Part shown: positions 22,180-23,816 of the stretch, in pieces
How the letters are laid out: every line of letters starts with the position of its first letter
Numbering within the stretch: the first letter of the stretch is position 1
Origin: Roseburia sp.
GTDB lineage: Bacteria; Bacillota; Clostridia; Lachnospirales; Lachnospiraceae
Assembly (NCBI GenBank): GCA_023664685.1
Contig: JAMPFC010000004.1
Span: 1,233-65,232, forward strand
Length of the DNA stretch: 64,000 nucleotides
Direction: 5' to 3'
Program-made: the position numbers and the translations under genes
Notes under the pieces: generated by a model
Database searches by the model: none
What the model was told of the DNA's origin: nothing
Seen by the model: the letters and a program-made list of their open reading frames with translations, nothing else

Positions 22180-22509
22180 TTAAGGTTTAAAAATATTGTT
22201 TTCAGATGTTGCGTTGTCCGATTCATTTGTTACGTCATTATGCATGTCCTCCAATAATCCCTGTTGACGCAATGTTTCAAAAAATGACTGTGTTTGTGCG
22301 TTAACACACCCAAGAAACTCCACTTCCTCAATATCCTCATGATTGAAAAGGAAAAAAGTCTCCTCATCGATATACCCTTCTGGAAATACACATGCAATGT
22401 AATCATATGAATTTCCTTCCTCATCCTCTTGAAGAATCCCTATTAACATAAGATACTTCATTCCTTCTTTTAACCGAACAACACTTCCGATTGGTAATAA
22501 ATTTTTCAT
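22180..22509 (-). CDS. DUF4176-family protein (T7SS-associated accessory protein)
   Basis: The N-terminus MKNLLPIGSVVRLKEGMKYLMLIGILQ...YDYIACVFPEGY matches the DUF4176 pattern as I recall it. The start overlaps the effector stop (ATGA). Confidence 0.7.
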   Translation of the reverse strand: MKNLLPIGSVVRLKEGMKYLMLIGILQEDEEGNSYDYIACVFPEGYIDEETFFLFNHEDIEEVEFLGCVNAQTQSFFETLRQQGLLEDMHNDVTNESDNATSENNIFKP

Positions 22510-23816
22510 GGCATTACTCCTCCTAGCTCAATATTATCTACTATCTTTGCATCTACTTTTGAAATCACACTAACTGATTTTCCTAAATAACTATTTGCTT
22601 TTCCAACTACTCCGATTGCATCTTCCACATTCTTTATAATTCCTGTATATTCCCCCTTTCCTGATGTCAAAAACTCATAACCACTTTTAAGCGATTTATT
22701 TAAATTGTCATAATAACTTACTATTAATCCTGTATTCTTTATCAGATTTCCTGTTTCCGAAAAGGTATAACTCGCTAATTTAGCATGATAGCGTAGTGTG
22801 GAAATATCTGTCGTTAATACTGTTCCTACATTAGTTTCCCTAATCACATGACCTACCTGTTTTAGTTCCGACCCAACTTTCGAAAAGTTTGATGGGGTCG
22901 CTTGTTTTAATTTATCATATGATGTCCCAAGCGAATAAATCGTTCCTACCAAATCCAATCCATAAAAAGCTTTATTTCCCACAGCTTTTCCCAACTCTTC
23001 ATTACCAAGTTCCTCCCCGATTGAAGCACCAAACTCTTCCATTATATTCTTCAATGCATTTGTTTTTCCCACCTTTTCATAATTTTCGTTATGTATGTTT
23101 TTAACATCATCAACTGCATTCCAAATATCATTGCATCCACTAGCAAATGCTGCTACTGCTGCTACCGTTCCTAATCCTCCTGTGCCTGCTATTGTTCCAA
23201 TTGCCACAGCTGCCTTTGTAGCACCAGCAACAACTTTTACTGCAGCTTTCCCATACTCAACAACCTTATATACCAAACCATGATCATTATAACTTTCTTT
23301 TGCGTACTCTACTAATTGCTTTGCATCATTCACCCAATTTTTTACGTCTTTTTTTATTTTACTGCTTACTTTACTTGCTTTCTTTTTAACTGCTTTTCCT
23401 ACACTTTTTAACCACGAATTTTTCTCTGTTTTTGCTTTTGGACGATTGCTCTTTGAGACTGTCAGTTTCTTTCCACCACCTCCATGCGCACTTATGCTTT
23501 TACTCCCTCCCCGATGCAACATAGCATCATCGCCAAACATCTTCGCCAATGCCGAATCCATACTCTTCATCGTCTTTGCACTCTGTAAGGCCGCTGTAGC
23601 TCCCATCTGCAAAATACTTTCAATAACCGAGAATCCTTTCTGCGCACTATTTATTTTTCCCACAAAATTATTCGCTAGAAGAGAACTCCAATTCTGATTC
23701 ATTCCGTTCAATTCAGATGCCACACTGCGAAACAGGCTTTCATACTGCGATTGCAGTGAAGTCATCTGAGCTGCCTGACCTTTCAACTCTTCCGGTGTGA
23801 TTTTGATTCCTGCCAC
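22506..23816 (-). CDS. Putative T7SS effector: WXG100/LXG-like helical N-terminal domain, basic Gly/Lys linker, glycine-zipper hydrophobic segment, ~200-aa C-terminal domain
   Basis: GTG start behind GAGGTG. N-terminus: ITPEELKGQAAQMTSLQSQYESLF..ASELNGMNQNWSSLL. Hydrophobic segment: AAVKVVAGATKAAVAIGTIAGTGGLGTVAAVAAFASG (nt 23136..23246). Confidence 0.65.
   Translation of the reverse strand: MAGIKITPEELKGQAAQMTSLQSQYESLFRSVASELNGMNQNWSSLLANNFVGKINSAQKGFSVIESILQMGATAALQSAKTMKSMDSALAKMFGDDAMLHRGGSKSISAHGGGGKKLTVSKSNRPKAKTEKNSWLKSVGKAVKKKASKVSSKIKKDVKNWVNDAKQLVEYAKESYNDHGLVYKVVEYGKAAVKVVAGATKAAVAIGTIAGTGGLGTVAAVAAFASGCNDIWNAVDDVKNIHNENYEKVGKTNALKNIMEEFGASIGEELGNEELGKAVGNKAFYGLDLVGTIYSLGTSYDKLKQATPSNFSKVGSELKQVGHVIRETNVGTVLTTDISTLRYHAKLASYTFSETGNLIKNTGLIVSYYDNLNKSLKSGYEFLTSGKGEYTGIIKNVEDAIGVVGKANSYLGKSVSVISKVDAKIVDNIELGGVMP

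Follow-up and report, generated by a model that had tools for sequence, protein, structure and literature searches.

A 64,000-nucleotide (nt) stretch of Roseburia sp. DNA (contig JAMPFC010000004.1, positions 1,233 to 65,232; hereafter the window) carries a cluster of type VII secretion system (T7SS) genes in which the gene for a 436-amino-acid (aa) protein (22506-23816) overlaps the gene for a 109-aa DUF4176 protein (22180-22509); all of the cluster genes discussed here lie on the minus strand. The explanation that we favour, with moderate confidence, is that the 436-aa protein is a polymorphic effector of the adjacent EssC-type T7SS, with a DUF4176 chaperone and a membrane-acting cargo. The parts of this explanation are not equally firm. 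The 436-aa protein is very probably a T7SS substrate, and the DUF4176 protein, by analogy with published systems, is probably its stabilizing chaperone. Membrane toxicity of the C-terminal part is plausible, and the more specific proposal of a membrane-permeabilizing antibacterial toxin is put forward tentatively, as a possibility that falls slightly short of being probable.

The effector, taken from the open reading frame (ORF) list, has three parts. A WXG100-type helical hairpin (aa 1-100, nt 23517-23816), presumably the secretion-targeting domain, leads into a disordered basic linker rich in Lys, Gly and Ser (aa 101-170, nt 23307-23516) and then into an all-alpha C-terminal module to which we give the name CT-A (aa 171-436, nt 22509-23306). 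The gene starts with a GTG codon preceded by a GAGGTG ribosome-binding site, and its TGA stop codon overlaps the DUF4176 start codon as ATGA (junction ...GTA ATG CCA TGA AAA); the sequence GGAGGAG sits 8 nt upstream of the DUF4176 start. The effector coordinates, the overlap and the position of the hydrophobic peptide quoted in a preliminary description of this DNA were all correct on re-examination. The linker contains 18 Lys and 7 Gly in 70 aa and has an isoelectric point (pI) of 10.7, in keeping with its earlier description as Gly/Lys-rich and basic, and AlphaFold2 predicts it to be disordered (predicted local distance difference test, or pLDDT, below 50 for aa 110-152). The structural model was built from a 139-sequence alignment and has a mean pLDDT of 69.5 and a predicted template modelling score (pTM) of 0.39; an earlier run from 9 sequences gave a pLDDT of 41 and was discarded as unusable.

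Polymorphism of the effector is seen directly in a near-identical strain (locus L006). In a blastn comparison, L006 aligns to the window with 98.86% identity over 32054-23462 and with 98.06% identity over 22166-21293, and nothing aligns between these two blocks. The intervening cassette (22167-23461) comprises effector aa ~119-436 and the whole DUF4176 gene; in its place, L006 holds an unrelated C-terminus (CT-B) and two DUF4176 genes. The left breakpoint falls in the disordered linker at approximately aa 118, where identity to L006 stops at nt 23462, and the right breakpoint is 14 nt before the start of the first kinase gene. There is no room in the cassette for another gene beyond the C-terminus and DUF4176. 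From this exchange, the mobile unit can be delimited as the C-terminus plus DUF4176 alone.

The same pattern recurs in related proteins. P0004 and P0010 share effector aa 1-118 (97% and 86% identity, respectively) and then continue into the unrelated CT-B, while P0012 has a related N-terminus with a third C-terminus. The possibility that CT-B and the third C-terminus are distant relatives of CT-A was rejected, with hhalign probabilities of only 0.8% and 1.4%. Conversely, at least six unrelated N-terminal helical domains occur in fusion with CT-A, among them the 'MADIIVDT...' type in 71 representatives and the WXG100 type of the window in 17. Both alternative C-termini on a shared N-terminus and a shared C-terminus on different trafficking domains, as expected of polymorphic toxins, are therefore observed, and the protein described earlier as a candidate T7SS effector is borne out as one of the polymorphic type. 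Exchange of an immunity gene along with the C-terminus is not observed: the exchanged segment contains only the C-terminus and DUF4176.

The loci with the other two C-termini differ in what comes after the effector gene. The CT-B cassette (L006 10129-10751, L007 10110-10741) has two tandem small DUF4176 genes encoding proteins of 113-114 and 94-96 aa with a 4-nt overlap, an arrangement that suggests a hetero-pair of chaperones. In a Lachnospiraceae metagenome-assembled genome (MAG; GCA_017480565.1, L009/L010 10001-11842), the gene after the third C-terminus encodes not a DUF4176 protein but one of 245 aa with faint TPR matches; the set of helper genes upstream is conserved there.

CT-A has relatives in many genomes. 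A word-based search recovered 12 relatives, and a profile search of 1.84 billion representatives recovered 227 clusters with E ≤ 1e-3, 172 with E ≤ 1e-10 and 70 with E ≤ 1e-30. Nearly all family members are 340-530 aa in length, with the module placed after an N-terminal region of 100-180 aa, and they include proteins from Oscillospiraceae, Clostridia and Lachnospiraceae MAGs. Judged by these searches, CT-A is a real, sizeable and wholly unannotated family of predicted effectors. When the CT-A profile was compared with the PDB, nothing was found below E = 1; a tape-measure-protein stretch that aligned to the hairpin described below (E = 8.4) was dismissed, as was a match of a Lys/Ala-rich stretch to the NCBIfam entry 'TSA22' (19 bits versus a cut-off of 100), which was judged compositional. 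Foldseek searches of the PDB and BFVD matched the WXG100 part only and left the CT-A part without a match, the BAR-domain and tape-measure matches being noise (E > 0.3, TM-score < 0.25).

In the AlphaFold2 model, the C-terminal part consists of helices at aa 135-177, 181-212, 217-242 and onward, with pLDDT values of 60-88 up to approximately aa 385; the last 45 residues of the effector are modelled at low confidence. By column conservation, the best-conserved stretch of the 139-sequence alignment is the core at aa 176-300. Conserved residues before the hairpin are Y176, G180 and Y183, and those from its end onward are S226-G-x-N229-D230, N233, D237, D247, N253, K256 and a G267/G271/G276/G280/Y284 block. 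The tail past aa 300 is more divergent yet homologous in 121 of 136 members. These 121 tails form one homologous cluster, which rules out a layout of conserved pre-toxin domain plus polymorphic tail and implies that the tail belongs to a single domain with the hairpin.

No element of the CT-A family is more conserved or more hydrophobic than a small-residue hydrophobic helical hairpin at aa 188-228 (nt 23133-23255), recognized from the model and from conservation in the 139 sequences. The hydrophobic stretch noted earlier at nt 23136-23246 (AAVKVV...FASG) corresponds exactly to aa 191-227, and its place in the best-conserved part of the family goes beyond chance. It forms the tip of a long hairpin of two helices (aa 181-212 and 217-242) joined by a turn at aa 213-216. 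Along the hairpin come, in order, an amphipathic helix that starts with Y-G-K and lines up K190, K194 and K201 on one side, a string of Ala, Gly, Val and Ile residues, the G214..P218 turn, approximately 10 hydrophobic residues and an S/G-x-N-D motif. G214 and P218 are each conserved in 128 of 136 members (the latter is Val in the window), N229 in 128 of 139 and K190 in 117 of 139. The maximum 19-residue Kyte-Doolittle mean is 1.59 in the window protein and at least 1.6 in 101 of the 139 members, and in those members inspected the maximal window is centred on the G..P turn. The conserved feature of the family, as read from the alignment, is a helical hairpin of small residues bearing a Lys stripe.

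The downstream neighbour is, as previously described, a soluble DUF4176 protein (Pfam PF13780, 4.8e-24, 84.7 bits versus a cut-off of 25). It is acidic, with a pI of 4.1, while the linker and hairpin of the effector are Lys-rich, and its best PDB match is 9DCS, the small DUF4176 protein MQE10_09270 (1.7e-13). To follow the pair in other loci, we drew on assemblies, genomes and metagenomes, which yielded 71 ORFs with a match to the CT-A profile. Of these, 67 had enough downstream sequence to be used; the loci represent 13 lineages at 90% effector identity. A small DUF4176 gene begins within -13 to +84 nt of the end of the CT-A gene in 66 of the 67 usable loci, and the single locus lacking one is fragmentary, on a low-coverage contig of 1.4 kb. 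A search of the window detected neither another CT-A gene nor another DUF4176 gene.

Sequence identities indicate that the two genes are inherited together. Compared with the distant loci L001 and L003, the window shows identities of 33-36% for EssC and 26-28% for EsxA, but 41-44% for CT-A and 53-64% for DUF4176. In a comparison of partners, the window DUF4176 protein is 53-61% identical to those of CT-A elsewhere and 28-34% identical to those of CT-B; in L006, whose EssC is 99.7% identical to that of the window, the DUF4176 proteins reach only 28-35%. DUF4176 thus goes with the C-terminal cargo and the upstream helpers with the N-terminal type, which is the modular logic known from LXG toxins.

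A chaperone function for DUF4176 proteins is taken from the literature. In 2025 they were shown to be toxin-specific chaperones, named Ltc, that are needed for toxin stability and export and that bind a disordered amphipathic helix (PMC12478183). MQE10_09270 (PDB 9DCS) is needed for the stability and export of the membrane-depolarizing toxin TelD, and the same study offers the speculation that, in toxins of this type, small DUF4176 proteins attach to the helices that insert into membranes (PMC12478183). The DUF4176 groups of S. suis pair one to one with C-terminal toxin types and stabilize a pore-forming LXG toxin (PMC12482557). The suggestion that the neighbour acts as a cytoplasmic chaperone or neutralizer matches these two reports and is backed by the strict co-inheritance of CT-A and DUF4176.

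The N-terminal domain had been called WXG100/LXG-like, and only the first half of this label is retained. Effector aa 4-87 match the Pfam WXG100 family (PF06013) with 30.0 bits versus a cut-off of 27.3; the TIGR03930 score of 29.9 bits is below the cut-off of 44.85. The predicted helices (aa 8-40 and 45-100, pLDDT ~90) form a helix-turn-helix that Foldseek superposes on the EsxB/EsxA structures 4J11, 3O9O, 3GVM and 3ZBH with TM-scores (target) of 0.8-0.94, and a phmmer search of the PDB with the N-terminus retrieved ESAT-6-like proteins. The WxG motif is degenerate: the turn reads N-W43-S-S, in which the Trp is kept and the Gly is replaced by Ser, as it is in relatives. Unlike EsxA-type proteins, the domain is not free-standing but fused to a 336-aa extension. 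A Pfam scan gave no match of the effector to LXG (PF04740) at E ≤ 0.1, and an L-x-G motif check returned L36-N-G in the window protein, L-R-G in P0002 and L-K-V in P0003. Given the missing PF04740 match, a targeting domain of ~100 and not ~200 aa, and the WXG100 fold, the LXG assignment was dropped.

Four small genes lie immediately upstream of the effector gene. The 167-aa helical protein (23834-24337), directly upstream and a candidate targeting factor, has no Pfam family; homologues occupy the same position in L007 (69% identity) and L009 (32%), though the effector C-terminus differs there. The 98-aa WXG100 protein (24359-24655; TIGR03930, 59.8 bits versus a cut-off of 44.85) is a candidate hairpin partner and export-signal carrier, and the 103-aa helical protein (24674-24985), with weak WXG100/LXG similarity, is another candidate targeting factor. 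The 98-aa protein ends in FRTID (FxxxD) and the 103-aa protein in YKRLD (YxxxD), and both motifs are kept in L007 and the distant L009. They are candidate T7SS export signals of the kind expected on targeting partners, and the two proteins are the candidate equivalents of small helical Lap-type upstream partners with an F/YxxxD motif. The 219-aa protein (24998-25657) has no Pfam or NCBIfam match and is conserved along with the helper set (65% identity in L007, 41% over 78 aa in L009). All four helpers are present where the effector has the WXG100-type N-terminus (L007, L009) and absent from CT-A loci with other N-termini.

These features can be joined in a proposed mechanism. The WXG100 hairpin would target the effector for export, probably in partnership with the 98-aa WXG100 protein and the 103- and 167-aa helical proteins, and the Lys-rich disordered linker would be the junction at which cargo is exchanged between strains. 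The co-translated, cargo-specific DUF4176 protein would keep CT-A, an all-helical domain of roughly 220 aa, soluble, stable and inactive in the producer and stay behind at export. Like published Ltc/DUF4176 proteins, it may bind an exposed hydrophobic or amphipathic helix, most likely the Lys-striped hairpin. Outside the cell, the freed hairpin and its Lys stripe would most likely engage an anionic target membrane and permeabilize or depolarize it.

Several observations weigh against a membrane-acting antibacterial cargo, and the largest group of them concerns the hairpin. Its hydrophobic arms, arranged around G214...P218, are only ~10-12 residues each, and the Hessa-scale insertion sum is positive (+3.1 kcal/mol in the window protein, with a family median of +3.2); by these predictions the stretch is no classical transmembrane segment. 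The glycine-zipper label given to it earlier does not hold up either. Scored as (G/A/S)xxxGxxxG or GxxxGxxx(G/S/T), a strict zipper motif occurs in 42 of 139 members, compared with 49 expected from shuffles of the same segments, and the one strict match in the window (A203-G207-G211) is no better than chance for the composition. Since the motif is no commoner than shuffling predicts, zipper periodicity is not what selection preserves. A structural model, suggested as a check, does contain the hairpin, but AlphaFold2 is only moderately confident there (tip pLDDT ~60, pTM 0.39), and burial in a soluble bundle is compatible with it. The profile of the hairpin fits two readings, between which the model does not choose: a marginally hydrophobic element that inserts conditionally, as in soluble membrane-active toxins, or a packed helix in a bundle. 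Furthermore, CT-A has no match among Pfam, NCBIfam or PDB sequences, and no CT-A homologue has been characterized.

To these must be added the missing immunity gene. An antibacterial membrane toxin that acts from outside should have one, and in 13 lineages no polytopic membrane protein or other conserved cargo-specific gene was found beside the CT-A/DUF4176 pair. The earlier observation that the window has no membrane immunity protein thus extends to the whole CT-A family. In the window itself, the cluster (14987-31838) encodes no polytopic membrane protein, and Pfam scans of all neighbouring genes detected none of the immunity families DUF443, DUF5085 and DUF5079/5080. In related loci the pair is flanked by WXG100-like pairs, FHA proteins, phosphatases, kinases or lipoproteins. 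The lipoprotein and kinases of the window were considered as immunity genes and rejected, as they are not exchanged with the cassette. The premise that toxins of this kind need a membrane immunity protein is true in part. It does not apply to TelE or to cytoplasmic EsxX, two glycine-zipper toxins whose hydrophobic helix is sequestered by the soluble proteins TipE (PMC10434224) and ExiAB (PMC12744356). Against EsxX arriving from outside, protection is by the membrane proteins ExiCD (PMC12744356), and the DUF4176-assisted membrane toxins TelD and LXG1-CT3 have DUF443 immunity proteins (PMC12478183, PMC12482557).

Three other explanations bear on these points. The small DUF4176 protein might be both chaperone and sole cognate neutralizer, that is, the immunity protein, in the manner of ExiAB and TipE, with CT-A acting from the cytoplasmic side or having to reach it, so that a membrane immunity protein would not be called for. 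DUF4176 is indeed the only gene that travels with the C-terminus, and the usual role of such a co-exchanged gene in polymorphic toxin systems is immunity; the 13 lineages offer no other conserved specific neighbour, DUF4176 is more conserved than the toxin it accompanies, and soluble neutralizers have precedents in ExiAB with EsxX (PMC12744356) and TipE with TelE (PMC10434224). We nevertheless regard this dual role as unlikely: the precedents belong to a different fold family, the systems studied keep DUF4176 and immunity separate (the DUF443 protein TipD or Imm3; PMC12478183, PMC12482557), no DUF4176 protein has been shown to be protective, and a cytoplasmic protein cannot shield sister cells from a toxin inserting from outside. 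The lack of an immunity candidate in any lineage would equally follow if CT-A were not antibacterial but a conserved secreted accessory substrate, for instance one that helps at the membrane or envelope or one aimed at the host. In each of the 13 lineages its gene is located centrally in the core cluster, with WXG100 pairs on one side and kinase/phosphatase genes on the other; many of the loci are from gut metagenomes ('human gut metagenome' contigs) and one is from a rumen MAG; and where a lipase gene neighbours CT-A, that candidate toxin does have a candidate immunity gene nearby, in the form of an adjacent lipoprotein gene. Improbable as well, this explanation conflicts with the dispensability of CT-A, since in near-identical and in related strains this slot is occupied by unrelated C-termini, and with its shuffling onto at least six N-terminal domains. 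Across distant systems, CT-A is also better conserved than the machinery, which points to horizontal cassette exchange; replaceability, shuffling and exchange are hallmarks of polymorphic toxins and not of core parts.

The least likely of the three takes the hairpin for a translocation or 'middle' domain of the kind suggested for TelA and TelB, and for the docking site of DUF4176, with the toxic part at aa ~240-390 acting inside the target cell. Large Ltc/DUF4176 proteins bind the middle domains of cytoplasm-acting toxins (PMC12478183), and the many invariant polar residues that follow the hairpin would suit a specific binding or catalytic site better than a simple pore. Past the hairpin, however, the sequence matches no known toxin or enzyme family and Foldseek finds nothing for it, the homology of the tail in 121 of 136 members makes hairpin and tail act as one domain and not as a polymorphic pair, and a cytoplasm-acting toxin would again need an immunity protein. 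A wider and rather improbable proposal is that CT-A is a widespread T7SS cargo of gut and rumen Clostridia that either has the small DUF4176 protein as its only cognate partner, for chaperoning and self-protection, or is not directed at kin (its targets being the host or other taxa, or its role that of a helper that inserts into membranes for co-secreted effectors such as the neighbouring lipases). If this were true, polymorphic toxin cassettes of this kind would depart from the rule of 'toxin plus immunity' and follow one of 'toxin plus chaperone'.

The polymorphic effector with a DUF4176 chaperone, which remains our preferred reading, resembles several known systems in part. As in the TelD/MQE10_09270 pair of Streptococcus intermedius GC1825 (PMC12478183), a small DUF4176 protein (70-130 aa) is genetically linked to a helical T7SS effector with a presumed action on membranes. 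TelD, however, combines an LXG domain and its Lap partners with TipD, a membrane immunity protein of the DUF443 family, and its DUF4176 gene is located after the immunity gene, whereas the window effector has a WXG100 hairpin, a DUF4176 gene overlapping its own, no membrane immunity gene and a kinase-type secretion system in place of T7SSb. In the S. suis LXG1-CT3/Imm3/DUF4176(CT3) system (PMC12482557), DUF4176 is likewise downstream of the toxin and its type tracks the C-terminus and not the N-terminus; DUF4176(CT3) stabilizes the pore-forming toxin. Unlike the window effector, the S. suis toxins have LXG and pre-toxin domains, and CT3 is TspA-like with a DUF443 immunity protein (PMC12482557); CT-A is unrelated to these and has no immunity gene.

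TelE of S. gallolyticus and EsxX of S. aureus ST398 are also helical T7SS effectors with a Gly/Ala-rich hydrophobic helix, to which TipE and ExiAB, respectively, bind before export (PMC10434224, PMC12744356). In these two toxins the zipper lies at the very C-terminus and consists of a long GxxxG repeat with essential glycines, whereas the window segment is central, forms a hairpin and does not conserve the strict motif; the partners also differ (DUF4176 in the window, DUF5085/SHS2 for TelE and EsxX), and the window has no ExiCD-like membrane proteins. In LtcA-TelA and LtcB-TelB (9DCR, 9DCT, 9MNO), a cargo-specific chaperone that is kept in the producer recognizes a region that is disordered on its own and separates the toxin from the targeting domain. 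Large Ltc proteins have two lobes and 200-250 aa and are encoded upstream, between the lap and LXG genes, while the window protein is small, single-lobed and encoded downstream.

The question of why a soluble DUF4176 protein adjoins a membrane-type T7SS effector was already answered in 2025 by the recognition of toxin-specific chaperones. What the window adds is a natural swap that defines 'C-terminus plus small DUF4176' as the minimal mobile unit, an uncharacterized effector family of 227 representative clusters, many from human-gut and rumen Clostridia, and the presence of DUF4176 chaperones beyond T7SSb, in kinase-type variants and with WXG100-type instead of LXG-type effectors. If the absence of an immunity gene is biology and does not reflect a distant gene, it challenges the view of these effectors as kin-directed antibacterial toxins, and the small DUF4176 subfamily becomes directly testable on a compact two-gene system.

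Other CT-A loci have their own gene content. The commonest lineage recovered (L068 and 47 similar human-gut-metagenome loci) consists of the effector, DUF4176, an EsxA-like protein (61% identical to the window EsxA) and three lipoprotein genes; its recurrence in many human-gut assemblies indicates that the CT-A family is common in a gut commensal. Immediately upstream of CT-A effectors of the 'MADIIVDT' type are genes for a lipoprotein of 209-247 aa and for an Mbeg1-like/Lipase_3 protein of 462-553 aa, found at L002 5463-7730, L003 5647-7722, L011 3283-5352, L014 2073-4351 and L015 1793-4147. These are a candidate T7SS lipase toxin and its candidate immunity protein, and the Lipase_3 proteins resemble the T7SS-secreted lipases with a C-terminal targeting domain mentioned in a 2024 survey by Garrett, Higginson and Palmer (PMC11217815).

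The secretion motor of the cluster is a 1522-aa EssC-type FtsK/SpoIIIE ATPase with an N-terminal FHA domain (27270-31838; Pfam FtsK_SpoIIIE 1.3e-58, FHA 2.6e-18). It is followed by a group of core small proteins (25661-27282) comprising a 117-aa protein, a YukD/EsaB-like protein (26672-26932; Pfam YukD 2.3e-9) and three WXG100 proteins at 26413-26667, 26032-26331 (EsxA-like) and 25661-25948 (Pfam 1.2e-14, 3e-9 and 7.4e-5, respectively). Downstream of the effector and DUF4176 genes, and outside the swapped cassette, Pfam matches identify a membrane Ser/Thr kinase (765 aa), a lipoprotein, a PP2C phosphatase and a second kinase (504 aa) at 16775-22152. The two membrane kinases are paralogous (55% identical over the kinase domain), are of the active type and have one predicted transmembrane segment each. 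The lipoprotein has weak similarity to the 765-aa kinase in the extracellular portion of the latter. A CHAP/Bsp-like protein is also encoded downstream in the cluster.

No EssB, EsaA or EssA family was found by Pfam among the cluster genes, which sets the cluster apart from T7SSb. T7SS variants in which membrane kinases, PPM phosphatases and FHA proteins replace EssB/EsaA/EssA were catalogued in the 2024 survey (PMC11217815), and the window cluster fits this general kind of kinase-type variant. Shared with the T7SSc-j types, as they are set out there, are an EssC-type ATPase with FHA, YukD-like and WXG100 proteins, a membrane Ser/Thr kinase and a PPM phosphatase, together with the absence of EssB, EsaA and EssA; candidate substrates are flanked by small WXG100-like genes, as in the window (PMC11217815). 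In the sections consulted, the survey names neither DUF4176 partners nor the CT-A family (PMC11217815). A DUF6382-FHA (TseJ-like) protein is encoded in L001, unlike the window, where none was found.

The T7SS region (~14900-32054) has a GC content of 0.37-0.42, compared with 0.45-0.47 in its flanks. The alignment with L006 ends at window position 32054; beyond this point L006 (1-762) has a HipA gene and the window a hybrid histidine kinase gene, so the island sits in different contexts in the two strains. Three AAA_14/DUF4143 ATPase genes are present at 2649-3863, 13698-14972 (plus strand) and 34851-36059, two of which flank the island. Beyond the cluster, the region 4055-13552 encodes a PASTA-domain Ser/Thr kinase (11804-13552), two BspA-type leucine-rich-repeat proteins (7377-9323 and 9302-10291) and a 1076-aa Big_2 surface protein (4055-7285). 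Finally, the region 52944-61500 contains dnaA, dnaN, recF, gyrB and gyrA, with rnpA, yidC, jag, mnmE and mnmG on the other strand, and the GC skew changes sign near 54 kb. This gene set and the skew change mark the chromosomal replication origin, which places the T7SS island ~20-40 kb from oriC.

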